From: a virus
Taxonomy: Duplodnaviria; Caudoviricetes
IMG/VR virus record: IMGVR_UViG_3300044971_003805
Span: 1 to 27,007 of that record
Direction: 5' to 3' (one strand)
Length of the DNA stretch: 27,007 nt
The notes beneath the pieces are model-generated. The model was not told the DNA's origin. It saw nothing but the letters and a program-made list of their open reading frames with translations, and did no database searches. A program made the translations under genes and the position numbers. Shown in pieces: positions 2,642-18,266 of this stretch (position 1 is the stretch's first letter; every line of letters begins with the position of its first letter).

Positions 2642-2670
2642 AGGCTACGCCGCAGGCAATCAACCGGGAA
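2642..2670 (-). promoter_or_regulatory. Putative leaderless promoter of the portal gene
   Basis: TTCCCG-17 nt-TAGCCT-6 nt-ATG(2635), no Shine-Dalgarno. Confidence 0.6.
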
Positions 2671-2998
2671 GCCCGCCGTCGAGCACGCGGACGTGGAACG
2701 CGCCGGCGGTCGGCACCGTCTGCGTCTTCGACGACGGCCACGCGATGACGAACTCGGCGAGGTAGTCGCCGGCCTCGTTCGTGTCGATCGCCGTCCAGTC
2801 GTAGCGCACGACGCCCGACGCTGGAGTCACGACCGTCGCGGTCGTGTTGACTTTGTAGGTGCCGCCGGAGGTGCGCTGCTTCCACATCCGAAACGTGACT
2901 CCGAGGGCGGTCGTGAGGTCGACCGCAGTCCCATCGCTCTCGTTCTTGATCGTTGCCTGAAGCGACGGCAGACGGTCTCCTTGCTTGATCACGAACAC
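2660..2998 (-). CDS. Small virion protein, BppU N-terminal-like Ig/beta-sandwich domain
   Basis: IKQGDRLPSLQATI...VDLT...GVVRYDW...DT..AGDYLAEF...TVP pattern; GTG start with GGAGG RBS. Confidence 0.7.
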   Translation of the reverse strand: MFVIKQGDRLPSLQATIKNESDGTAVDLTTALGVTFRMWKQRTSGGTYKVNTTATVVTPASGVVRYDWTAIDTNEAGDYLAEFVIAWPSSKTQTVPTAGAFHVRVLDGGLPG

Positions 2999-3007
2999 GC
3001 GGGCCTC

Positions 3008-3949
3008 CTACTGAACGACGACGACGAGAGACGATGACGCGACGTTAACGTCGACGCCAGAGGCGAGCACGTCGACTGCGAGCGACGAGGCCGCGAGATC
3101 GACAACGGCGGACGACGCGGTGGGGTCGACGACGAGGCCGACGCGCGCGACGTCGAGCGCGAGCGCGTCGGGGTCGACCGCGTCGCCGACGTGCACGACG
3201 GACGCGGCGACGACGCCGCCCGCGATAACGCCGCCCGCCGCCGGCTGCCAGAAGTAGCCGTCGACCGGTGCCTGCTCCGCGAAGCCGACGCCAACGACGG
3301 CGACAGTTGCGAGCGACACCGCGCCCGCGCCAACGACAACGGGCGAGGCCGTCGACGTCGACGTGACCGACGCGAGAGCGAGCGCGCCGGTCGACGCGAC
3401 GACGGGCGAGGCCGCGCCTGCGACGGACGCCGACGCCAGCGACGGCGAACCTGACGCGGTGAGGACGGGCGACCCGGTGCCCGACACCGCCGCCGATCCG
3501 AGGACGATCGACGCGGTCGCCGAGACGCCACCGACGATCGCCGTTCCGGACACCGCGACCGACGCCAGCGTGACGGCACCGCTCGCGGCGACGACGGGCG
3601 AGGCCGACGACGACGTCGACACGGACGCGAGCGCGATCGCTCCCGACGCGAGGTGCGTCTGTCGTCCCGCGCCCGACACCGTCGCGGAGGCGAGCGCGAC
3701 AGCGCCCGAGGCGACGTGCGTCTGTCGGCCAGCGCCGGAGACCGCCACGGCGCTCAGAGAGATGGCGCCCGTGGCGACGTGCGTTTGCTGTCCACTGCCG
3801 GCGACCGCCACCGTGTCGAGGGTGATGGCCGCCGTCGCGACGTGGGTCTGTTTCGCGTCGCCCGCCGCGGTGACGGACCCGAGCGCAATGGCGCCCGAGG
3901 CGAGGACGCCCGACACTGCCCCCTGAGGGGATAGCAGTGTCAGGAGCAT
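3008..3949 (-). CDS. Ala/Val/Ser-rich repeat virion protein (fibre-like)
   Basis: 313 aa with ~21-aa tandem repeats; lies in a structural cluster. Confidence 0.75.
   Translation of the reverse strand: MLLTLLSPQGAVSGVLASGAIALGSVTAAGDAKQTHVATAAITLDTVAVAGSGQQTHVATGAISLSAVAVSGAGRQTHVASGAVALASATVSGAGRQTHLASGAIALASVSTSSSASPVVAASGAVTLASVAVSGTAIVGGVSATASIVLGSAAVSGTGSPVLTASGSPSLASASVAGAASPVVASTGALALASVTSTSTASPVVVGAGAVSLATVAVVGVGFAEQAPVDGYFWQPAAGGVIAGGVVAASVVHVGDAVDPDALALDVARVGLVVDPTASSAVVDLAASSLAVDVLASGVDVNVASSSLVVVVQ
3280..3905 (-). repeat. About 10 degenerate 63-bp (21-aa) coding tandem repeats
   Basis: SGAIALGSVTAAGDAKQTHVA / TAAITLDTVAVAGSGQQTHVA / TGAISLSAVAVSGAGRQTHVA / SGAVALASATVSGAGRQTHLA / SGAIALASVSTSSSASPVVAA... 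Confidence 0.8.
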
Positions 3950-3952
3950 GGT

Positions 3953-4111
3953 TCAGTCCCCCGCCGCTTGCAGGGCCGCCTGCGCCGCCTCGATCTGCGC
4001 GTTGAGCGCGGCAATGCGTTCGATGTCGCCGAGCCTCTCCGCGGCGGTGCGGAGCGACTGCAACGTCGCGATGCGCATCAACAGGATGTCTCTTTCGACG
4101 TCGATAGGCAT
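3953..4111 (-). CDS. 52-aa coiled-coil hypothetical protein (MPIDVERDILLMRIATLQSLRTAAERLGDIERIAALNAQIEAAQAALQAAGD)
   Basis: TGATG coupling to the upstream stop; fills the gap exactly; below the ORF-track cutoff. Confidence 0.8.
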   Translation of the reverse strand: MPIDVERDILLMRIATLQSLRTAAERLGDIERIAALNAQIEAAQAALQAAGD

Positions 4112-5547
4112 CAAATCACCATCTGTCGCAATGCGATCGTCGAGGTGTTCAGCAAAAGATAGATATAATCGATCTCCGTCGCGCCGTCCCTGTAGGTCAC
4201 GTTAAAGCACGTGTCCCCGAGGATCGCGGCGCCCTGCGGATAGAGCATCGTCCCCCACGGCTGCATTGCGTTTTCGGCGAGGTCGAAAGCAAACCAGCGG
4301 CCAGTAGCTTCCTTCGTGAGATAGATGCGGTCTTTGCTATAGGCGTACTTCGTGCCCGTGGTGAACGTATCGACGGCAGGAGCATAGGTCTGCGAAATCC
4401 ACGTGTTCGCCGCGATGTCGTAGACGTCGAGGTTGACCGCAGCGCCGCCGCGGAAGCTGTAGATGTAGCGCCCGTTCTTGATGGCGTTCTCGTTGTTCCA
4501 GTCCGAAGCGGACACACTGTGCACCCACGAGCCACCGCCACCGATGGCAAGCGCGCCGCCGCGCGCCGCCGTGGGGGACAACGTCGTCCACGTGTTGCCG
4601 CTCAGGCTGAAGCGGTACATCGTGACGGCGTTGTTCCCCATCAGGTAAACGAAGTCGTCGTTGCCTTCGAGCGAGTATTGCGACGTCGCATCCGGCGTCG
4701 TCGTCCACGCGGCGCTGACGGTCAGGACCGTTGCGGTGTTGCTCGCGACGGTGCGGATCTGCCCCGCTCCGGTGCCGGCGGTGATGCGCAGTTGCGAGTT
4801 CGCCCACTGGTTCGTGGTCCAGCTCTTGCCGGTGTTCGTCAGCGTCGTCGATGCGCCAGCGGTCGCTGTGCCCGTTGCGAAGCTCTTGAACCCCGAGTCG
4901 ATCCATGCCGGGGTTGAAACCATCCGGCCCTCGGTACCCCACGACGCGGGCAGTCCGGTTGTGCCGAGTATGACCCACGTATTCGTCGCGAAGTCGTACC
5001 GCTTGAACGATCCCGAGGCGAATGCGCCGGCGCCGATGACGTAGAAAACAGGGGTTATCAGTCGGTACTGAGACGTGTTGTCGAACGCCACCGCCTCGGC
5101 GCCGGTGAACGTGATCACTGCGTTCGTGCCGATGGTGTTCGATGCGATGGTCTTGAGCTTCCCAGCGTTCGTGCCGCCGACGAAATACACACTGTAGCCG
5201 CGCAGGTCACGGGCGAGAGTCTGGTTCGTCGTGATTGACGTCGTGGTTCCAGCGGTCGCCGTGAGCGAGGACGCGGCGGTGGTCGCACCCGTCGAGAACG
5301 AGCCACCCACGCCACAAGCGCCAGCGCCGAAGGTCCCCGAGAGGTTCTGGTTGGGCAGCAGCACCCAGCCGTCCTCGGATGGGTTGTAGATGTGTGACAC
5401 CGTGTTGCCCGACACGAGGACTTGCTGCTGGCGGAAGTGCCTCGACGAGACGACGAAGTGCGCCGCAGCCGTCGCCTGAGGCGTCGGAGCGATCATCTCC
5501 CACCGCTTGAGGTCGAGAATCTTTCGGTTGCCGTTCGTCGTTGGCAT
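4111..5547 (-). CDS. Kelch-like beta-propeller protein with Thr/Gly-rich inserts; probable receptor-binding or virion accessory protein
   Basis: Blade-end motifs IYNPSEDGW, RYDFATNTW, RFSLSGNTW, VYDIAANTW, AFDLAENAM; two related inserts (GTNAGKLKTIASNT / GTGAGQIRTVASNT). Confidence 0.7.
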   Translation of the reverse strand: MPTTNGNRKILDLKRWEMIAPTPQATAAAHFVVSSRHFRQQQVLVSGNTVSHIYNPSEDGWVLLPNQNLSGTFGAGACGVGGSFSTGATTAASSLTATAGTTTSITTNQTLARDLRGYSVYFVGGTNAGKLKTIASNTIGTNAVITFTGAEAVAFDNTSQYRLITPVFYVIGAGAFASGSFKRYDFATNTWVILGTTGLPASWGTEGRMVSTPAWIDSGFKSFATGTATAGASTTLTNTGKSWTTNQWANSQLRITAGTGAGQIRTVASNTATVLTVSAAWTTTPDATSQYSLEGNDDFVYLMGNNAVTMYRFSLSGNTWTTLSPTAARGGALAIGGGGSWVHSVSASDWNNENAIKNGRYIYSFRGGAAVNLDVYDIAANTWISQTYAPAVDTFTTGTKYAYSKDRIYLTKEATGRWFAFDLAENAMQPWGTMLYPQGAAILGDTCFNVTYRDGATEIDYIYLLLNTSTIALRQMVI

Positions 5548-5981
5548 CAGGTCACCGTGATGTTTCGTCGGAGGTTGTCTGCGGTCATGCGCAGGAGCGC
5601 GGGAATCTGGTCATTGGCCGCGATGCCGCCCATCTGTGACTGGTTCGTCACCGTCGAAACGGTCGTCACGGTTGTAATCGTGGCGAGCGTCAATGACGCG
5701 GTGATGGCATCAAGGAGCACACGTTGACGGCCGCCGGCATCTGGGTAGGTCTGGCCGATCGTGCGCGTCAACGACTGCACGGCCATGCGCGTTGCTTCAA
5801 GCACCTCGATGAGTTCGCCACCCAGCGCGGCGATCGGCAGCGGGTTCGCCGCCGAGACGTCGCCGTCGACGACGCCATCGGCGCCGGTGGCGAGCTTGAC
5901 TCGCTGGTAGAGCGCGCCGCCGACGTCGTCGGCAGCGATCGTGGCGCCCGTGCCCGGTGTGTAGCCTACGTTGTCAGGCAC
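5547..5981 (-). CDS. Hypothetical virion-associated protein
   Basis: GTG start with GGAGG RBS; TGATG-coupled to the next gene; N-terminus DNVGYTPGTGATIAADD...YQRVKL resembles phage fibre-associated proteins. Confidence 0.75.
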   Translation of the reverse strand: MPDNVGYTPGTGATIAADDVGGALYQRVKLATGADGVVDGDVSAANPLPIAALGGELIEVLEATRMAVQSLTRTIGQTYPDAGGRQRVLLDAITASLTLATITTVTTVSTVTNQSQMGGIAANDQIPALLRMTADNLRRNITVT

Positions 5982-5996
5982 GGTACCTCCTCAGCG

Positions 5997-6401
5997 TCAG
6001 ACGTTGCTGTCGGTGATGGTGAGCGACGTGACCTGCACGGGCTGCCCCGACACGATCGAGAGCGTCGTGAGGTTCAAGTCGCTGCCGCTCGTTCCGCAGT
6101 CGCCGTCGGCGACGAACGCGCCGGTGCTGTCGGTCAAGTAGAAGAACGCCGCCGTGCCGGTGTTGTTCGCGCTCGTGTCGCTGAACGGCGTCGTGAACGT
6201 GAGCACGCCCGACGACGACGAGCCGCAGGGATCGGCGCAGGTCAGTTCGGCGAGCAGCGTGCCGGCCGGAGTGCCGCCCTTCGTGCCGGGCTTCGAGCCG
6301 CTGTAGATGCGGAGCAGGCCCGCGCCCGCGCCAGCGTCGATGGCCGCCCGGATTGCGTCGATGCGAGTGTTGCGGACGGTGTCTGCAATGCGGACGGCCA
6401 T
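5997..6401 (-). CDS. Small phage structural (tail/fibre-associated) protein
   Basis: AAGGAG RBS; LRIYSGSKP...LLAEL...GTAAFF...DGDCGTSGSDLNL pattern of a widespread ~130-aa virion family. Confidence 0.8.
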   Translation of the reverse strand: MAVRIADTVRNTRIDAIRAAIDAGAGAGLLRIYSGSKPGTKGGTPAGTLLAELTCADPCGSSSSGVLTFTTPFSDTSANNTGTAAFFYLTDSTGAFVADGDCGTSGSDLNLTTLSIVSGQPVQVTSLTITDSNV

Positions 6402-6424
6402 CTTGATTCTCCTTGGTGCGGTTC

Positions 6425-6453
6425 ACTCTACGTTGCGCCGATCGGTCTGTCAG
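6425..6453 (-). promoter_or_regulatory. Putative sigma70-type promoter for 6401 and downstream genes
   Basis: CTGACA-17 nt-TAGAGT, followed by the AAGGAG RBS. Confidence 0.5.
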
Positions 6454-7778
6454 CCGTACGGCTCCCATCGGCGCGGGCGGAAGTCGACGTAGGTGGAGCC
6501 GAGGTCGGTCGAGCGGAAACGCGCGCGCGGCGTGTTCGCGTACGCGCTCGACGCCTGCACGATGACCGACCCGAGGGCGACGAGTTCGGGGAAGGGCAGG
6601 CCGGTGAGCGTGTTGATCTCCGTCGTCGCGCCGTCTCGCGCGGTGCCTTGCGTGTCGTACTGCGCGATCCCCTGCACCGCGAGGATCGGCGCGTTCACGT
6701 CGTTGCAGGCGAAGAGGTGGACGAGAAAGAACTTGTTCTCGGCGACCTCGACGAGCGACCAGTTCCCGCCGGTGCCGTCGTTGTACGCCGGGCGACCGCT
6801 CGCGCCGACGAACCCGGCGGTGCCGCTGTAGATGAACGGGAACGCGTCGGCGGTCTTGCGTCGCCACGACGTCGCGCCCGATCGGTAGAAGACCGGGACC
6901 TGCGCGATCGGCGCGAGGTCTTGCGGCGTCCCGTCGACGATGTCGACGCGGATGTCTTCGTCGCGGATCGCGCCGGCGTCGACCGCAAGCTGCGCGTGCG
7001 CGGCGAGCGAGCCGCTGCCGTCGACGGTGAGGCCGGAGAGCGCGAGGCCGAACTCGTACGCCGCGCCGCGCGTGGTGTGCAGGTAGGCGTGCGTCGACGC
7101 ATCCATGACGAGGCCGTGCCGCTCGTCGGCGAAGAAGATCGCGACGTCGTTCGTCGCGTCGAAGTACAGCGCGGCGACGAGAGCGTGCGTCGTGATGAGC
7201 GAGATCGAGAACGTCTGCGTCGCGGTGAGCGTCGCCGTCGTCGCGTCGACGTAGACGTACCAGAGACCGTCGGTGTCGGTGAGCGTGACGGTGAGCGACG
7301 ACGTGAAGGTGCGCTTCATGCCGGCGAGCCAGACGTCGAACGACGACGACACCGGCGCGAGCGTGAAGACGCGCGTCGATCCGTTGAACGCGAGCGTGGT
7401 CGAGGTGCGGTTCGGGAAGCCGGTCGGCTCCGACGTCACGACGATCGCGTCACTCGGAGGCTGAAGCATCGAGGCCGGCGCGTCGCAGAGGACGTCGCGC
7501 GTGCCGGCGACGAACGGCACCGGCGAGGTTGACCCGCTCGCGTTCGGCCCGAACGCCGTCTCGATCGCGACGACGACGAGACGCGGCGGCGAGTTCCTGA
7601 ACGTGTACGTTCCGACCTCGCTATCGCCGGTGAGTCGGTCGACGATCGTCGCGTTGACGATGTCGCCGTCGACGAAGGCAGAGGCGAACGAGCGGCAGTT
7701 GCGGATCGCGCCGCCGTCGAGGGCGCGGTCTCCGGTGCCCGTCGTGCTCGACGTCTGGCCGACAAGGTTCTTGAGCAT
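6450..7778 (-). CDS. Tail-fibre-like virion protein (442 aa; start revised to MLKNLVGQTSSTTGTG)
   Basis: N-terminal TSSTTGTG...G....RSF...F.DGD...EVGTYT motif seen in phage fibre N-termini; the track's extension to 8072 is Arg/Pro-rich and overlaps a structured non-coding region. Confidence 0.75.
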   Translation of the reverse strand: MLKNLVGQTSSTTGTGDRALDGGAIRNCRSFASAFVDGDIVNATIVDRLTGDSEVGTYTFRNSPPRLVVVAIETAFGPNASGSTSPVPFVAGTRDVLCDAPASMLQPPSDAIVVTSEPTGFPNRTSTTLAFNGSTRVFTLAPVSSSFDVWLAGMKRTFTSSLTVTLTDTDGLWYVYVDATTATLTATQTFSISLITTHALVAALYFDATNDVAIFFADERHGLVMDASTHAYLHTTRGAAYEFGLALSGLTVDGSGSLAAHAQLAVDAGAIRDEDIRVDIVDGTPQDLAPIAQVPVFYRSGATSWRRKTADAFPFIYSGTAGFVGASGRPAYNDGTGGNWSLVEVAENKFFLVHLFACNDVNAPILAVQGIAQYDTQGTARDGATTEINTLTGLPFPELVALGSVIVQASSAYANTPRARFRSTDLGSTYVDFRPRRWEPYG

Positions 7779-7784
7779 GGCGGC

Positions 7785-7813
7785 AGGGTAGCGGCGCGGA
7801 CGTGGCGCGTGAA
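7785..7813 (-). promoter_or_regulatory. Putative leaderless promoter of the 7778 gene
   Basis: TTCACG-17 nt-TACCCT-6 nt-ATG(7778), no SD; same geometry as the portal promoter. Confidence 0.6.
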
Positions 7814-7815
7814 GA

Positions 7816-7831
7816 CGCGCGCCGCTACGGT
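7816..7831 (+). promoter_or_regulatory. Putative rightward promoter motif (-10 TACGGT) driving the candidate ncRNA
   Basis: CGCGCGCCGCTACGGT, identical 16-mer at 21404-21419 upstream of ssb; TACGGT is also the -10 of the 12943 promoter. Confidence 0.55.
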
Positions 7832-7835
7832 GCGA

Positions 7836-8445
7836 GTCCCCGGATGAAGGCGGCTGGCAAGCCCGCTGGTGGGCCGGGGGGCGCGGGCGGCATGGTGCCG
7901 CTCGCGTCGTTTCTCGATCGGGCGTTGACGCGGCGAGCGCGCGGCGGGCAGGATCGAGATCGACCGAGACGAACAACGAGACCGGCCTGCGTCGAGGCAC
8001 TCGACGACGACGTGAGCGGATGACGGGCATAGGCTTGCGGGACGACAACGCGAGCAGAGGACGACGACACAAGGGTCAACGAAGACACCCGAGGTCGTCG
8101 CCGGGAACCACGGCAAGGCAGCCGACGGCGAGATGGTTCCTGTACTCCGCAACGGACTCACGTCGATCACGCCGGGATGGAAGCCGAACGATGCTCGACG
8201 AGCGTCGTTGTCGGCGCATCACGGCAGGCGCAGCCCGACTCGCGCGAAGCGCGCTCCGGCGAAGCACCTTGACCTGAACCAGCACCGGCGAACTTCGCGC
8301 TCGCGAACGCCGCGCACCTTGACGTCGACGAGGCGAAGTTGCGCCGGCTTCACCGACAGCGCAGGCGCGCGTAGCGGTTCGCCTTCGACGGCGACCAGCC
8401 GAGGAGCACGAGGACGCGCGCGAGGATCGCGCGGCACAAGCGTCG
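7836..8445 (+). ncRNA. Candidate large structured non-coding RNA (~600 nt), family not recognised
   Basis: No credible ORF; nested stems (8008-8016/8157-8165 enclosing 8062-8068/8094-8100 and 8104-8110/8134-8140; 7883-7892/7896-7905; 8187-8196/8200-8209; 8285-8298/8333-8347); G-U pairs and A-rich loops favour the + strand. Ends approximate. Confidence 0.55.
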
Positions 8446-8450
8446 ACGAC

Positions 8451-9779
8451 TCACACGAACGCCACGTCGGACGCGAGCAGGAGTTCGTGGACGGCCCAGA
8501 CGAGCGCGTCGAGGCGGTCGGGCGATCGCTCGCCGGCGAGGCCGGTGAACGAGGTGAGTTGCTTCTCCAGCGAGCGGAACGTGCCGACGTGGAACACGCG
8601 CGGGTCACGGTGCGGCGTTCGCTCGTAGAGCGCGGACACCGGCTCCGCTCGCGCGCGCTTGCCTTGCGCGGCGCGCACGGTGCGGACGTGGGCGAGCGGC
8701 GACACCGATGCGATCGTCTCGCTCACCATCTCGCCGCCGTTGTTGACCTCGGCGACGATGCAATCGGCGCGATGCTCCTCGTACGCGTCGACCGCGCGCT
8801 GCGCCCATCCTCGCGGCGGCAGCTTGCAGGACAGGTCGTCGAGGACGTACGCGCACCCGTCGACGCCGAGGCCGACGACGACGATGCCGGTCTCGTCGGA
8901 GTGCGTCGACGACGTCGCCGCCGGGTCGACGCTGACGACGACGCGCGAGAGTTCGGGCGCGGCCTTCACGCGCACGGCGTCGATCGTCGTGCTCGTCCAG
9001 AGCGCACCCTCGACGTCGTCGAGGAGTTCGGCTTCGATCTCCTGTCGACCGAGTCGCGTGCCTTCGTAGGTCTCGACGAGCTTCGCGAAGAACGACGGAT
9101 CGAGATTGTCGCGGTTCGCGTAGCTGCTGCCGGTCGTCGTTGACGTCGACGGTGCGGCGCGGAGAGCGCGCAGCGTGTCGATCGGTCGCGGCGTCGTCGT
9201 GACGATCGCGCGCGGCGGTGAGCCGTCGGGCGCGGTGAGACGCAGGCCGAGGTCGAGGTTCGCGAGCAGTTCGTCGCGCGTCGTCGGCTTCCACGCGGCG
9301 AGTTCTTCCAGCCATGCGGTGTCGTGCTGCGGACCACGCGCGGCGTTCGGGTCGTCGCTGGAGAAGATCGTGGCAGTCGCTCCGCCGGGCCACGTCACGC
9401 GACGCTTCGACGGCTCGAAGTGCGGACGCCCGCGCGGATCACTCGTCGCGAGGATGCCAGCAGGACCGAGAACCATGACGTCGCGAGCGTCGCCGGCGTC
9501 GCGCGCGGCGAGGGCGATGTACCTCGCTTGCTTCGACCTCACGCGCTCGTGCAGCCACTCCGCGCCCGTCCTCGTCTTGCCGAACCCGCGCCCCGCCATG
9601 ACGAGCCAGAAGCGCCACGCGCCCGGCGGCGGTCGCTGCTCCGGTCGCGCCCAGAACGGCCACGCATGACGGAGGCGCGCGCAGGTCGCAGGACCGAGGC
9701 GACGCAGGAGCGCGCGTCGATCGGCGTCGTCGAGAGCGAGCAGGCGCTCGCGAAGCGCGGCGAGGTCGTCGGCTCTCAT
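8451..9779 (-). CDS. terL: Terminase large subunit
   Basis: Walker A AGRGFGKT, Walker B AWLEE, TTTP motif, RNase H-like VSVDPA, SDETGI, PDRLDA; start set at ATG 9779 overlapping the terS stop (ATGA). Confidence 0.95.
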   Translation of the reverse strand: MRADDLAALRERLLALDDADRRALLRRLGPATCARLRHAWPFWARPEQRPPPGAWRFWLVMAGRGFGKTRTGAEWLHERVRSKQARYIALAARDAGDARDVMVLGPAGILATSDPRGRPHFEPSKRRVTWPGGATATIFSSDDPNAARGPQHDTAWLEELAAWKPTTRDELLANLDLGLRLTAPDGSPPRAIVTTTPRPIDTLRALRAAPSTSTTTGSSYANRDNLDPSFFAKLVETYEGTRLGRQEIEAELLDDVEGALWTSTTIDAVRVKAAPELSRVVVSVDPAATSSTHSDETGIVVVGLGVDGCAYVLDDLSCKLPPRGWAQRAVDAYEEHRADCIVAEVNNGGEMVSETIASVSPLAHVRTVRAAQGKRARAEPVSALYERTPHRDPRVFHVGTFRSLEKQLTSFTGLAGERSPDRLDALVWAVHELLLASDVAFV

Positions 9780-10303
9780 CGCGTGCGTCTCGCTGCCATC
9801 GCGTCGAGCGCGGACGCAAGAGCCTCGACGGCGTTGTCGAGCGAGTCGTCCTCGCCGCCATCGAACGCGTGGCGACCTGCCTCGACGTTGTCCTTCGCCC
9901 ATCGCGAGCGGTGCCGTCTTTCGAGTCGATGCGCCGCTGCCTTCCAGTCCTTCTCCGCTGCCTTCCCGATCAGCATGACGTCGCGGGCTTCACTCTCTGC
10001 CGCTGCCTTCTCGACGTCGTCGGAGAAGGACACAAGATCGACCTCGTATCCTCGCGGAGTGTATCCCGAAGTCGCGACGAGCCGACGCAGTTCTCCGCCT
10101 CTTTTCATCCACGAGTAGAACGTATCGCGATGGATGCCGACCGCCTGCGCGGCGACGTCGGGGAAGTTCCCGGCGCGCACGAGGTCGACGATGCGGCGCA
10201 TGATCGACGGATCGATCACGAACAACGGCGGACGATGACCAAGCGGCTTCGTCGTCGCCGCTTTCTTCTTCGTCGTCGGCTTGCGTTTCGATGTGGTAGC
10301 CAT
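9776..10303 (-). CDS. terS: Terminase small subunit
   Basis: HTH-like GNFPDVAAQAVGIHRDTFYSWMKRG and DWKAAAHRLERR; directly upstream of terL. Confidence 0.85.
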   Translation of the reverse strand: MATTSKRKPTTKKKAATTKPLGHRPPLFVIDPSIMRRIVDLVRAGNFPDVAAQAVGIHRDTFYSWMKRGGELRRLVATSGYTPRGYEVDLVSFSDDVEKAAAESEARDVMLIGKAAEKDWKAAAHRLERRHRSRWAKDNVEAGRHAFDGGEDDSLDNAVEALASALDAMAARRTR

Positions 10304-10323: not shown

Positions 10324-10929
10324 GTGAAGAAGAAGCCTAGCACCGACGAAGCGCCTGCGAAGGCGTCGTCGAAGATCAACCCCGCTCTCGAACCGCTCGC
10401 GCGCCCGACGGCTTCGCTGCGTCTCGACGAGCGCAACGCCCGCAAGCACGAGCGCCGGAGCATCGACACGATCAAGACGTCGCTCTCGACGTACGGGCAG
10501 CAGAAGCCGATCGTCGCCCTGACGAGCGGAACCGTCATCGCCGGCAACGGCACGCTCGAAGCGGCGCGAGAACTTGGATGGGAGAGGATCGCGGTCGTCA
10601 CGTTCGACACCGAGGACGAAGCGCGCGCGCGCGCGTTTGCCATCATGGACAACCGAACCTCCGATCTCTCGTCGTGGGATCGAGACGTGCTCGCCGAACT
10701 CCTCGAAGGGATTCCTTCGACGATGGTCGACGCGGTCGGCTTCTCGTCGCAGGAGATCGAGACGTTGCTCGCGCTCTCCGCCGGCGATCCAACGGCGGGA
10801 CTTCCGTCCGACTCGAAGCACGTCGGACAGTTCGGCGTGATCGTTCTCTGCGGAAGCGAGGAAGAACAGCGCGACGTCTACGATCGGATGATCGCAGAGG
10901 GTTTCTCTTGCAAGGTCGTCGCGACCTGA
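10324..10929 (+). CDS. ParB/Srx N-terminal-domain protein
   Basis: NARKH, SLSTYGQQKPIV, VIAGNGTLEAA, DNRTSDLSSWD; GGAGG RBS, GTG start. Confidence 0.88.
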   Translation: MKKKPSTDEAPAKASSKINPALEPLARPTASLRLDERNARKHERRSIDTIKTSLSTYGQQKPIVALTSGTVIAGNGTLEAARELGWERIAVVTFDTEDEARARAFAIMDNRTSDLSSWDRDVLAELLEGIPSTMVDAVGFSSQEIETLLALSAGDPTAGLPSDSKHVGQFGVIVLCGSEEEQRDVYDRMIAEGFSCKVVAT

Positions 10930-10941
10930 AGGGGTTGATCA

Positions 10942-12108
10942 ATGCTTGTCAGCGTGAGGAACAACTGCACCGACTTCTCGTCGTACAGGTCGGCGCGGGT
11001 CAAGAGTCTTTTCAACGTCGAGAGCGGAGCGAACTTCTCGATCGACGCGGACCTGCCGATCGAGGACGACGGCTGGTCGATCGGCGTCGTCGTCGGCCCG
11101 AGCGGTTCGGGCAAGACGTCGATCGGCCGTCGCGTGTTCGGCGACGGTGCGATCCACGCGCCGACGTGGCGAGGTGGTGTTCCGATCGTCGACGAGATAG
11201 CACCGGAGGGGAAGTTCGACGACGTCACGGCGGCGCTTGCCGCCGTCGGCCTTGGCAACGTGCCGTCGTGGCTTCGACCGTACGAAGTCCTGTCGAACGG
11301 CGAGAAGTTCCGCGCCGATCTCGCGCGCCTCGTCTGCGAGAAACCGGAGCGAGTCGTCGTCGACGAGTTCACGTCCGTCGTCGATCGGCAGATCGCGAAG
11401 TTCGGCGCGCTCGCGTTTCAGAAGTCGTGGCGTCGAACCGGCGGGAAGGCCGTTCTCCTGACGTGTCACTACGACGTGCTTGAGTGGATCGAACCGGACT
11501 GGATCTTCGACACGCAGACGAGACTCTTTCAGCGGAGGTCACTTCGGCGACCAAAGTTCGACGTTGAGGTGTTCGCGACAGACTGGAGTTACTGGCCGCT
11601 TTTTGAGCCGCATCACTATCTAAAGATTCCGAAGATGGTTGGGGCGCAGTGCTACGTCGGCGCGGTTGACGGCGAGCCGGTTTGCCACCTCGCCGTCGGG
11701 ACGATGGCACTCGGCAGGGACAGGTTCGAGGCGCGTGCGTGTCGACTCGTCGTCATGCCGGAATGGCAGGGTGCAGGCGTCGGCCTTCGCTTCCTCGATC
11801 ACGTCTGCCAGCTTCAGCTTGACGGTCTCGGCAGGACGGGTCGTCGGATCACGACGATGTTTCACACCTCGCATCCCGGCCTTGCCGCCGCGCTTCGACG
11901 GAACAGGAAGTGGGTTCAGGTTTCCGAGAGACTGTTCGCGAACAACGGCTCGACGAACAAGAAGGCCGCCGTCGCCTCGGGGATTCTGCGCGGTCGCAAG
12001 GTCGTCATGGGCGCGAAGCAGGCGGCGGCCGGCGGCTCGTGGTTCGGCGGACACCTTCGCGCGGTGCAGGGGTTTCGCTACATGGGCGATCGGGGCGGAG
12101 AGCGATGA
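10942..12108 (+). CDS. ABC-type ATPase fused to a Mom-like GNAT acyltransferase
   Basis: Walker A GPSGSGKT, signature LSNGE, Walker B VVVDE, H-loop TCH; then FEPHHYL and acyl-CoA motif RLVVMPEWQGAGVG. Confidence 0.88.
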   Translation: MLVSVRNNCTDFSSYRSARVKSLFNVESGANFSIDADLPIEDDGWSIGVVVGPSGSGKTSIGRRVFGDGAIHAPTWRGGVPIVDEIAPEGKFDDVTAALAAVGLGNVPSWLRPYEVLSNGEKFRADLARLVCEKPERVVVDEFTSVVDRQIAKFGALAFQKSWRRTGGKAVLLTCHYDVLEWIEPDWIFDTQTRLFQRRSLRRPKFDVEVFATDWSYWPLFEPHHYLKIPKMVGAQCYVGAVDGEPVCHLAVGTMALGRDRFEARACRLVVMPEWQGAGVGLRFLDHVCQLQLDGLGRTGRRITTMFHTSHPGLAAALRRNRKWVQVSERLFANNGSTNKKAAVASGILRGRKVVMGAKQAAAGGSWFGGHLRAVQGFRYMGDRGGER

Positions 12109-12770
12109 GGGTTGCGCTGTTCGGGCAACGCTCCTTCGGCGGGGGAGTTCTTCGATCCCTCGTCGAGCGTCACGAGATCGCGCTCGTGGTGTCGCCGCCG
12201 AACGACGAGGACGGACGCGAGGACCGAACGCGTGCGACGGCGTCGCTGCTCGATCTCCCTTGGCGCGCGTCGGGCACCGTCACGCCCGACGAGTTCCCAG
12301 ACGACGTCGACCTCATCGTCTGCGCGCACTCGCACGACTTCGTCGGACGGAGAACGCGCGCGCGTTCGAGGTTCGGGGCGGTCGGCTACCATCCGTCGTT
12401 GCTCCCGCTTCACCGAGGACGTGACGCCGTGAGGTGGACGATCCATATGCGGGACCGCGTCGCCGGCGGGAGCGTCTACTGGCTCTCCGACAACGTCGAC
12501 GGCGGAGACGTCGCCGCGCAGGAATGGTGCTTCGTTCGTCCCGACGACGACGCGTCGTCCCTCTGGCGTCGAGAGCTTTTCCCGATCGGCGTCCGTCTCC
12601 TGAACAGGGTCGTCGACGACGTTTCCGCGGGCGTTCTCGTTCGCGTACCGCAGGACGAGGAACTCGCGACGTGGGAACCGTCGTGGTCGCGCCCGCCGCT
12701 TCGACGACCCGAACTCCTCTGCCTACCGGAGCCGGGCAAGCGCGGGCCGGAGTTCGTCAGGACGCGCTAA
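12105..12770 (+). CDS. Formyltransferase (Fmt/PurN-like, 10-formyl-THF dependent)
   Basis: MRVALFG start (ATGA overlap), GYHPSLLPLHRG, VDGGD. Confidence 0.9.
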   Translation: MRVALFGQRSFGGGVLRSLVERHEIALVVSPPNDEDGREDRTRATASLLDLPWRASGTVTPDEFPDDVDLIVCAHSHDFVGRRTRARSRFGAVGYHPSLLPLHRGRDAVRWTIHMRDRVAGGSVYWLSDNVDGGDVAAQEWCFVRPDDDASSLWRRELFPIGVRLLNRVVDDVSAGVLVRVPQDEELATWEPSWSRPPLRRPELLCLPEPGKRGPEFVRTR

Positions 12771-12942: not shown

Positions 12943-12971
12943 TTGACAGGCGAACGTCGGTCGCGTACGGT
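12943..12971 (+). promoter_or_regulatory. Strong sigma70-type early promoter
   Basis: TTGACA-17 nt-TACGGT; CGAACGTCGG direct repeat at 12918-12927 and 12951-12960. Confidence 0.8.
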
Positions 12972-12977
12972 TGCTGA

Positions 12978-13278
12978 GTCGGTTGCGGTTGACGCGGTCG
13001 ACGAAAAGCAGGCGGACGTCGGGACCGGTGAAACAGATCGGAACCCCCCGCTGAACAGAGACCCGGTCGGAGCAGGAGCGCGGAAACGCGTAGCCGGCGA
13101 GGACAGACCGGGAAGCAGAAAACAGAAAGCCGCGCCCGATGCGCGGACGACATCGAAGCGACGACGACGCGCCCACGGGGCGGGGTTCGTTCAACGCGAC
13201 GACGTCGACGAGGCATCGGGCGCAGCGACGACGACGTGAGCACCGCTCGCGTCGCGGTCGCTGCGCAACACCGCGACA
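12978..13278 (+). ncRNA. Long structured 5' leader or sRNA
   Basis: About 320 nt from predicted TSS to first ATG; stems 13023-13028/13063-13068, CGCG-GAAA-CGCG 13079-13090, perfect 11 bp 13132-13142/13213-13223; A-rich linkers. Confidence 0.5.
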
Positions 13279-13299
13279 GCACAACAGGGAGAGAAAGCT

Positions 13300-15638: not shown

Positions 15639-16811
15639 ATGAAGAAGATCGCCATCGTCCCGTCGTCTCCGTCCTCGCCGCGTCAGCGCATGATCGACCT
15701 CATCGACGCGCTCAACGCCGCCGTGCTCGAACGCTCGACTGAGTCTCGCCTGCTCGTCGCGTGCGCCATCGCCGGCCACCACGCGCTCCTGCTCGGTGAG
15801 CCCGGCACCGGCAAGTCGTACCTCGCCGAGGCGCTCGCCTCGGCCATCGAGGCGGAGTGCTTCCGCTACCTCATGGGGAAGGCGACGACGCCCGACGAGA
15901 TCATCGGCGCGCCGGACCTGAAGCGATGGAGCGACACCGGCGAACGCGTCCTGCGGACGCGGCACAAGCTGACGTCGGCAGTGATCGGCTTCCTCGACGA
16001 AGTGTTCAAGTCGAACTCGGTCGTCCTGAACTCGATCCTCCGGCTCGTCAACGAACGCACCTACATCGACGACGCCGGCGAGCACGCGTCGCCGCTGCGC
16101 TTCGTCGTCGCGGCGTCGAACGAGACACCGGAGCCGGGCGAGGTTGACGCCTTCTACGATCGATTCCTCGTCGCGCTCTGCGTCGAGCCGGTCGCCGACC
16201 CGGTCAACCGGCGCGCACTCGCTCGTCGCCAGTTGCCGCCGCGTCCGTCGAAGGTCGCGACGCTCGCCGACCTCGACGCCGCTCGCGCTGAGGCTCGCGC
16301 GCTGCCGATTAGTGACGCGGCGATCGACGCGCTCGACGCCGTCGTGTCGTCGCTGCGCTCCAAGGGCATCGTGGTCAGCGACCGGCGCTTTCAGGCGACG
16401 ATCGACCTGATGCAGGTATGCGCGTGGCTCGACGGGCACGCCGAAGTCGGCGCGGCCTCGGTCGACGTCGCGCGACACACCGCGTGGCGACGACTCGATC
16501 AGCGCGCCGCCGTCGATGCCGCCGTCGAGGCAGCGATGCCGAAGGTCGACGCGGACCTGACGAAGATCGGGAAGGTGCTCGCCGAACAGGACGCCGCGAT
16601 CCGCGCGTCGTCGACCCTCTCGACGAAGGCCCGCCGGCAGGAGGCACTGGGCGCTGTCGCCGACGTGCTCGACGACCTGACCGCAGACCTCGACCGACTC
16701 GAACGAGAGAACCCGAACGCGAAGCCGGCGATCGACATCGTCCGCGCCCGCGTGAAGACCACGAACGAAGCCTGCAACGCGGCGACGATCGCCGCCTTCC
16801 GCACGAAGTGA
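15639..16811 (+). CDS. MoxR/RavA-family AAA+ ATPase
   Basis: GEPGTGKS, FLDEVFKSNS, ASNE, AFYDRF, VSDRR. Confidence 0.92.
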   Translation: MKKIAIVPSSPSSPRQRMIDLIDALNAAVLERSTESRLLVACAIAGHHALLLGEPGTGKSYLAEALASAIEAECFRYLMGKATTPDEIIGAPDLKRWSDTGERVLRTRHKLTSAVIGFLDEVFKSNSVVLNSILRLVNERTYIDDAGEHASPLRFVVAASNETPEPGEVDAFYDRFLVALCVEPVADPVNRRALARRQLPPRPSKVATLADLDAARAEARALPISDAAIDALDAVVSSLRSKGIVVSDRRFQATIDLMQVCAWLDGHAEVGAASVDVARHTAWRRLDQRAAVDAAVEAAMPKVDADLTKIGKVLAEQDAAIRASSTLSTKARRQEALGAVADVLDDLTADLDRLERENPNAKPAIDIVRARVKTTNEACNAATIAAFRTK

Positions 16812-16820
16812 GGGACGACC

Positions 16821-18266
16821 ATGCGAGACCTGACCTACCGGGTGAGCGCCACGACGGCGCGCGCCTTCGACAGGAGCAACGACGAACTCGGAGACGCGGC
16901 GACGAAGCACGCGTCGAAGATCGCGGAGTGGCAGTCGTTCGGGCGCGAAGCGTTCGGCCGCCTGTACCGCCCGCAGGACGCGACGCGCACCGTGACCGCG
17001 CCCGACTCGTGGGCGCTGCGCGCGACCGATGCGCTGACGACGTCGCCCGACTGGAACGAGGCCGTCGAGGCTTCGCGCTCTCACCGGGTCGTCGCGGCGG
17101 CGACGACGGCGACGCTGCTCGACGCCGTCGCGAAGGCGCTCGGTGTTGACGGGATGCCCGACGGCGGTTCGTCGGCCGATCCGCGCTCGCTCGACCGGGC
17201 GGCGCGGCGCGCGCAAGAAGCGGCGCAGGCCGCATGGGAGCGCATGACGCAAGCGAACGACGAGCGCGACGACGCGGCGGCGAAGGACGCGCGCGACGAG
17301 TTCGACGCGGCGAGTGCGGCGGCGAAGGCCGCCGACGTCGCGGCGGCGCAGGCTCGTGGGCGTCGGGCGATGCTCGAAGGCGCAGCGAAGGCGCAGGCGG
17401 CGAAGGTCGCGGTCGCCGTTGCGAAGGCGGCGAAGGAGGCGAAGGCGATGGCGGAGGCCGTCGCGTTGCTCGCCGGCGTCGGTGTCGGCGGCGACGGCGT
17501 CGAGGGCGACATCGACGAGGAACTGTTGCGCCTCGTTCGTGACAGCGCCGACGTTCGCGAAGTGCTCCGTCAGGTCGGCCGCTCGAAGGACGCGGCGGCG
17601 AAGCGCACCGGGCTTCGTGACGGCGGGCGGCTCGACGTCCTCGGCGTCGACGCCGGGCGCGACGTGTTCTCGCTGGCGTCGTCGGAGATGTTGCTCCTGT
17701 CGATGGGCGGCGTCGCTCGCCTCGACGTGCTGTCGCGTGCGGAGCAAGGCGCGGCGCTCGTCGTCTCGCGCGCCGGCGACAAGCCCGCCGAGGCCGGCGA
17801 CTTCGTCCTGCTCGTCGACCGTTCGGGGTCGATGGCTGGCGCGCGGCAGCGGTCGGCGCGGGCGTTCGCGATGGGCGCGATCCTGCGCGCCCTCGGCGAG
17901 CGTCGCCGCGTCGTGGTCGTCGCGTTCGACGACGGCCCGGCGGCGCGCGCCGTGGTCGAGCGTGACGGGAGCGGCTTGCCCGACGCCGTGCGCGCGTTGC
18001 TCTTGCCGGCGTACGGCGGGACCGACGCGGTCGGCGCGATGCGCGCGGCTGTCGGTGCGTTGACGGCGAACGAGCGCGCGCGCGTCGACACGTTGATCGT
18101 GACCGATGGGCAGTGGGCGGACCCGACGCCGGAGACGCTGCGCCTGCTTCGTCGCGGCGGCGGCTCGTTCAAGGCCGTGCTCGTCGACGGCGTGGGCGAG
18201 TCGAAGGACTGGCTCGACGGGGTCTGGACGATGTCGTCGACCGGCGACGTGAAGCAGGTCCGGTGA
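16821..18266 (+). CDS. VWA-domain protein (ViaA-like MoxR partner)
   Basis: MIDAS DRSGSM, GGT, VTDG after an Ala-rich coiled coil. Confidence 0.9.
   Translation: MRDLTYRVSATTARAFDRSNDELGDAATKHASKIAEWQSFGREAFGRLYRPQDATRTVTAPDSWALRATDALTTSPDWNEAVEASRSHRVVAAATTATLLDAVAKALGVDGMPDGGSSADPRSLDRAARRAQEAAQAAWERMTQANDERDDAAAKDARDEFDAASAAAKAADVAAAQARGRRAMLEGAAKAQAAKVAVAVAKAAKEAKAMAEAVALLAGVGVGGDGVEGDIDEELLRLVRDSADVREVLRQVGRSKDAAAKRTGLRDGGRLDVLGVDAGRDVFSLASSEMLLLSMGGVARLDVLSRAEQGAALVVSRAGDKPAEAGDFVLLVDRSGSMAGARQRSARAFAMGAILRALGERRRVVVVAFDDGPAARAVVERDGSGLPDAVRALLLPAYGGTDAVGAMRAAVGALTANERARVDTLIVTDGQWADPTPETLRLLRRGGGSFKAVLVDGVGESKDWLDGVWTMSSTGDVKQVR

Follow-up and report, generated by a model that had tools for sequence, protein, structure and literature searches.

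Downstream of the gene for the terminase large subunit (terL) of a tailed phage, a gap of 672 nt (7779-8450) separates terL from a gene of 442 amino acids, and the question raised by this locus is what the gap contains, the initial annotation having proposed a single structured RNA of about 600 nt. The window analysed is the whole 27,007-nt record IMGVR_UViG_3300044971_003805. It is very probable that a structured RNA exists in the gap; the element is real, restricted to one clade and uncatalogued, and is most likely an RNA of about 320 nt on the + strand with a small companion, for which a function can only be proposed.

The Phage and the Locus

The ends of the window are identical to part of a 45.5-kb record (G001), of which a second 45.5-kb record (G002) is a circular permutation; both are probably near-complete genomes. 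The tailed-phage late module lies on the - strand (TerS, 9776-10303; TerL; portal-head morphogenesis fusion, 215-2635) and the head module is of the HK97 type, while recombination and replication genes occupy the + strand of the window; the scanned proteins include no integrase, and ARAGORN found no tRNA gene in the window. The product of the 442-aa gene has no Pfam match, and full-length relatives exist at 78-97% identity. Lake, freshwater or aquatic labels are carried by 23 of the 24 rows of runs containing the stretch (20 studies), 10 of these 24 rows containing at least half of the words; as to the host, neither the RNA pattern nor a relative of the portal was found in the GTDB genomes searched.

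Several features of the surroundings may be recorded here. A variable block of accessory genes (2660-7778, -) is interposed between terL and the portal, its genes at 3008-6401 being absent or swapped in some relatives; unlike this arrangement, many distant terminases are directly followed by a portal-sized ORF. In record L085 (about 3100-3260) some 160 extra nt, with a short direct repeat at their borders, directly follow the terL stop and may represent a tiny - strand gene. Two late-strand genes look leaderless (the 442-aa gene, site 7785-7813, and the portal, upstream of 2635), with a -10 hexamer 6 nt before the ATG which is kept in relatives. Opposite terS, a three-gene island (10324-12770, +) encodes a ParB-like protein, a fusion of ABC-ATPase and GNAT acetyltransferase, and a formyltransferase, and is possibly a base-modification module; a pair formed by a MoxR AAA ATPase and a vWA protein is found among the early genes (15639-18266, +).

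Table 1: Features of the gap and of the two genes that border it.
Feature	Position	Strand	Remarks
terL, terminase large subunit	8451-9779	-	PHROGs and Pfam Terminase_6N/6C; start from gene calls
442-aa gene, leaderless, downstream neighbour of the gap	6450-7778	-	gene calls
Divergent promoter-like sites	7785-7831	-/+	inverted repeat 7783-7833
Predicted leaderless promoter of the 442-aa gene	7785-7813	-	-35 7808-7813, -10 7785-7790, 6 nt before ATG; -10 kept in relatives
Candidate promoter P1 (of the initial annotation)	7816-7831	+	-10-like TACGGT 7826-7831
Unit S, about 75 nt	7838-7912	+	covarying stem-loop, 13-bp terminator-like hairpin 7880-7908, short T run
Predicted promoter P2	7925-7954	+	TTGACG-18-CASGAT; start near 7961
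Variable 5' part of the large RNA	7961-8006	+	covarying hairpin 7990-8006 at its end
Domain A	8008-8165	+	long closing helix and four-way junction, three arms; z -5.0
Domain B	8171-8260	+	interrupted stem, then short GAA-loop hairpin; z -2.6 as RNA, -0.7 as DNA
Hairpin C	8284-8348	-	z -3.9 (-) vs -2.3 (+); four one-sided changes keep pairing on -, none on +
Dispensable unstructured spacer	8354-8446		z 0.0; skipped in contigs of X12, X22, X20, X21

Anatomy of the Gap

By gene calls this is the largest intergenic gap of the window, the second largest measuring 529 nt; it had also been described as free of ORFs, which it is not, as ORFs of 69-336 aa cross it. Seven ORFs crossing the gap have no PHROG match, and a conserved ORF is excluded because the indels of the relatives (+2, -1, +1) break the frame.

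The gap is a composite of several units and not one RNA (Table 1). Of the original proposal, an uncatalogued structured non-coding element stands, supported by covariation above genome-wide controls; the single 600-nt RNA is unsupported, since the stretch includes a terminator-like stem as well as two promoter-like sites, contains a hairpin that probably belongs to the - strand, and ends in a tail that can be dispensed with. In unit S, which shows three double changes and folds at -49.9 kcal/mol on the + strand against -36.7 on the - strand, the 35 nt at 7878-7912 are identical in all five rows compared, and the 13-bp hairpin carries two G-U pairs. Within domain A, the 9-bp helix reported at 8008-8016/8157-8165 pairs perfectly in the window, one of its inner pairs (8010/8163) being broken in relatives; the helix 8285-8298/8333-8347 of hairpin C reaches its reported 14 bp only if one base is bulged out. 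The tip of domain B differs in sequence in each type and retains its pairing, and whole hairpins have been added in relatives before the promoter and after hairpin C. The loops are A-rich, as had been noticed: the 123 unpaired bases comprise 50 A and 11 U. A repeat, GCACCTTGAC, is indeed present in two copies, but the first is changed in four of four relatives, and as a motif it was discarded as chance.

Hairpin C adjoins the terL stop in the relatives that lack the tail (contigs of runs X12, X22, X20 and X21). Since it favours the - strand and abuts the terL stop where 8354-8446 is missing, it is probably the stem of the terL 3' end or a two-way terminator.

Homologues and Distribution

Homologues next to related terL genes were collected. 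Four IMG/VR records, L082-L085, which represent two sequence types, have the region in the same place at 76-79% identity. Identity to relatives is 84-92% over 8050-8349 and 61-78% over 7750-8049, while terL reaches 84-95% and the 442-aa gene 72-89%; the core (85-92%) thus attains the conservation of a good protein-coding gene and does not surpass it, its identity not exceeding that of terL (84-95%).

Beyond this clade the searches were negative. Of the loci returned by IMG/VR pattern scans, five recurring clade records account for 5 of 6, 5 of 42 and 4 of 33, the remainder being chance; in a metagenome scan both of the matching loci, out of 15, were of the L082 type. The element was found at none of 79 distant terminase loci and at none of the 35 non-clade loci of a second terL set (38 in total; the terL scan covered 40 of 64 collection parts). 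The best outside match of the covariance model (L013, 20.5 bits) sits within a portal gene and was rejected, and blastn against phages, plasmids and E. coli genomes gave nothing or short chance matches. TerL relatives at 58-65% exist. Within the collections searched, all occurrences of the element belong to a single clade of freshwater phages. Literature searches, which took in PMC12286853, PMC10690425, PMC10383478 and PMC7157519, yielded no description of the gap RNA; in four supplementary files of PMC10690425 neither 20-mers nor record ids matched, and a fragment could be listed in its remaining files.

Folding and Covariation

Shuffling gives the whole 610 nt a z-score of -2.40 on the + strand and -1.64 on the - strand (20 shuffles each), a signal that is strongest in 8003-8169 and lacking in 8354-8446: z on + and -, respectively, is -3.0 and -2.9 for 7836-7913, -5.0 and -3.9 for 8003-8169, -2.6 and -2.8 for 8169-8270, -2.3 and -3.9 for 8280-8352, and 0.0 and -0.3 for 8354-8446. 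The 165-nt segment at 8001 (+) ranks second of 136 strand-windows of that size, the first being the early leader described below; z of domain A is weaker in relatives (-2.1 and -1.4).

With the fold predicted from the window sequence alone, comparison of 8003-8352 on the + strand with each of G002 and G003 gives 7 double compensatory pairs and 12 that are broken, while controls of at least 82% identity show at most 3 double pairs (64 strand-windows) and 4 (44 strand-windows). The ratio of double to double plus broken pairs is 0.37, against control maxima of 0.26 (194 windows) and 0.17 (62 windows). In the curated structure, 99.3% of cells pair, a value matched by 3 of 500 shuffles and to be compared with 24-45% in slid controls (three sequences only). 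The double changes of domain A fall at 8021/8151, 8106/8138, 8108/8136 and 8035/8053, the last being seen in contigs of runs X11, X12, X20, X21 and X23. The compensatory changes exceed the controls on a base of three full sequence types (two of them close to each other) plus contig variants, which places them below R-scape-grade significance; the predicted fold is conserved with compensatory changes.

Promoters, Strand, and Expression

A dedicated promoter just upstream had been claimed. A strict sigma-70 scan finds none; a looser pattern combined with conservation yields two candidates on the + strand. The -10 of P1 is identical to that of the main early promoter and the site has a 16-nt match with the ssb leader, its conservation in relatives being only loose. 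P2 scores 8/12, under the threshold of the strict scan; the looser pattern has 6, 4 and 4 sites in G001, G002 and G004, and in all three the P2 hexamers lie at the same place, with a diverged spacer, and a site of the P2 class precedes another + strand gene. No U-tract terminator closing the large RNA on the + strand was found.

Folding by itself leaves the strand undecided between + and -; indeed, the pairs broken over 8003-8352 number 8 on the - strand and 12 on the + strand, the - strand also keeps more one-sided changes (7-8 vs 0-1), and in domain A four one-sided changes are kept on - and one on +. The claim that the internal G-U pairs fit the + strand only holds for 7880-7908 and for most of 8003-8260, and fails for hairpin C, which fits the - strand. 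For domains A and B the + strand is nonetheless highly probable, on account of P2, the A-rich loops, the mid-helix G-U pairs and the AT skew, which over 8001-8500 is +0.35 against about -0.1 in the adjoining - strand genes.

In the metatranscriptome X23, one of nine records fits over its full length: a 187-nt contig at 7979-8165 (depth 6.8, strand unspecified), differing from the window only at the compensatory pair 8035/8053; no other fully matching contig was found within 6400-9900. As X23 was picked because it contains the stretch, and its contigs carry neither strand nor level, the contig gives modest support for expression. Run X24, probably DNA, was left out of the expression evidence, and missing contig cover was not used for ranking genes.

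A Second Structured Element

The leader of the early operon (13120-13290, +), downstream of a TTGACA-17-TACGGT site at 12943, is a conserved element made of two long hairpins, with z -5.6, that G002 and G003 retain through paired changes; it matches no Rfam family, and its position is reminiscent of put-type antiterminators.

Proposed Function and Alternatives

The reading preferred here, which we hold tentatively, is that the predicted + strand RNA of about 320 nt, provided with its own promoter, acts in trans as a protein-binding decoy or scaffold. Transcription from P2 would yield an RNA extending from about 7961 to about 8280 (strand and start as predicted), presumably expressed together with the early or middle genes of the + strand and ending at or inside hairpin C; it would act through its shape rather than by pairing with terL, and its partner might be a protein recognising the A-rich loops, possibly the repeated GGCA or the helix common with the early-operon leader. 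A separate RNA of about 75 nt (7838-7912) would probably start at the upstream promoter and end at its own hairpin; pairing of unit S with the beginning of the large RNA was limited to interrupted duplexes that have no register in common. Two weak leads suggest recognition of a protein or of an RNA. GGCA is the top 4-mer on the + strand in three genomes (8, 11 and 12 copies against about 2 expected, and 1 on the - strand), at a count at least equal to the maximum of equal windows elsewhere, an excess found post hoc among 256 words and with several copies in stems or promoter spacers; moreover, the closing helix shares 16, 12 and 8 nt, in the three genomes, with the last hairpin of the early leader. 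An elaboration, speculative and unlikely as a whole, is that the 75-nt RNA and the four-way-junction RNA of 320 nt titrate in tandem an RNA-binding protein, by GGCA loops or the shared helix, and thereby time the early-to-late switch, which would make them a new class of RNA system.

The initial annotation had alternatively considered an antisense regulator of terL, which is possible but leaves the conserved branched fold unexplained. In its fuller form this alternative, which we consider unlikely, holds that transcription from P2 towards the terL 3' end damps the late operon early on, by convergence or antisense, the fold merely stabilising the RNA. P2 does point at terL, an intrinsic terminator on the + strand was not found, and hairpin C abuts the terL stop in contigs of four runs; however, the conserved part overlaps no coding sequence, antisense action does not need a conserved four-way junction, the 442-aa gene has a promoter-like site of its own, and hairpin C could terminate in both directions. 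That the fold belongs instead to the - strand, as an extended structured 3' portion of the terS-terL mRNA serving processing, stability or termination, is decidedly improbable: hairpin C fits that strand better, its alifold energies and SCI over 8003-8352 at least match those of the + strand, and more one-sided changes are retained, but the loops of domain A would become 42% U and 7% A, the conserved mid-helix G-U pairs would turn into A-C, and P2 would be without explanation. The DNA-level alternative, a single-strand origin, cruciform or packaging signal, or else a packaging RNA, is the least probable of all. It could draw on the GNA triloop hairpins, the proximity to terL and the score of domain A as DNA (z -3.5); domain B, however, reaches just -0.7 as DNA, no skew inflection is seen at 8 kb, the replication genes are 14 kb off, a contig from an RNA library exists, and TerS is present.

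Two further alternatives accept an RNA and give it another task. An RNA-RNA switch is as improbable as the - strand fold; in it, the 5' strand of the closing helix (8006-8017) would bind in trans to the 3' arm of either the final early-leader hairpin or S, thereby governing early translation or termination. In its favour, 8002-8017 matches the early leader over 16 nt, the greatest length seen in G001 (1 of 528 windows), an 11-mer pattern is common to the two elements in G001, G002 and G003, and there is a 12-bp complement to the invariant arm of S; yet in relatives only 12 and 8 nt of exact match remain, 2-4% of windows attain the duplex energies, both strands are already held in stable helices, and CGACG words are very frequent here. 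Rather unlikely, too, is an RNA-only machine, namely a ribozyme or a self-assembling oligomer like GOLLD and ROOL. The phage origin, the branching, the A-rich loops and near-invariant junction bases with a self-complementary GUAC would suit it; against it stand a size about half that of ROOL, the lack of a nearby tRNA, the failure of either model to match, the narrow distribution, and unpaired bases that give no loop-loop match above 4 bp.

Comparison with Known RNAs

The catalogue of large structured phage RNAs is short, and its best-known members, GOLLD and ROOL, still await a function; the gap RNA has a different build, a predicted start, core and companion RNA are defined, and it is small enough for transcription, probing and imaging without the host. 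According to a 2023 IMG/VR survey of viral structured RNAs, motifs measured at most 151 nt (PMC10690425), so that an RNA as large as this one can go unnoticed in a small phage clade. The reach of the finding is limited for now by the narrow range.

That the element belongs to no catalogued family, as initially suspected, is borne out: Rfam searches at gathering and E-value thresholds returned no family, the best E-values (2.8 for the window, 0.056 for a relative) lying far below gathering scores. Neither Rfam nor ARAGORN gave a match to tRNA or tmRNA, RNase P, SRP, 6S, introns or riboswitches; the GOLLD model RF02032 (conserved 3' region) had no match at E <= 10, nor did the ROOL model RF03087 match, one further ROOL search being blank along with its controls.

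Among phage RNAs, GOLLD and ROOL form homo-oligomeric nanocages, in ROOL with multiple pseudoknots. On one assumed structure of the gap RNA, no loop-loop match above 4 bp was found. In PMC12286853 both GOLLD and ROOL are described as phage-encoded, branched, non-coding, tRNA-linked and of unknown function, many GOLLD RNAs exceeding 800 nt and often lying near tRNA islands, and ROOL measuring about 660 nt. The gap RNA is likewise phage-encoded, branched and non-coding; unlike them, it is about 320 nt long, lacks a tRNA island and occurs in one phage clade. The pRNA of phi29 is a structured RNA near packaging genes, with a complementary loop pair, and serves a motor without TerS. The gap RNA is structured and near packaging genes as well, but has no complementary loop pair and no Rfam match, and its phage has TerS, TerL and an HK97-type head; the presence of TerS and TerL makes a pRNA unlikely.

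The c4 antisense RNA of P1 and P7 is a phage RNA with its own promoter, in which an unpaired segment is complementary to a motif repeated in leaders; phage origin and an own (predicted) promoter are shared by the gap RNA. Pairing of the c4 kind with leaders or start codons was tried and rejected as background, matches of at least 8 bp occurring in 7-15% of starts against 9-12% of all ATG. Sponge RNAs such as CsrB and RsmZ carry repeated GGA in hairpin loops, and the gap RNA resembles them in a short motif repeated on one strand with some copies in loops; unlike theirs, its motif is GGCA, only 3-4 of the 5-8 copies that the large RNA contains are mostly unpaired, and Rfam gives no match. The gap RNA may work like a sponge RNA or like one of the ornate phage RNAs, being a member of neither group.
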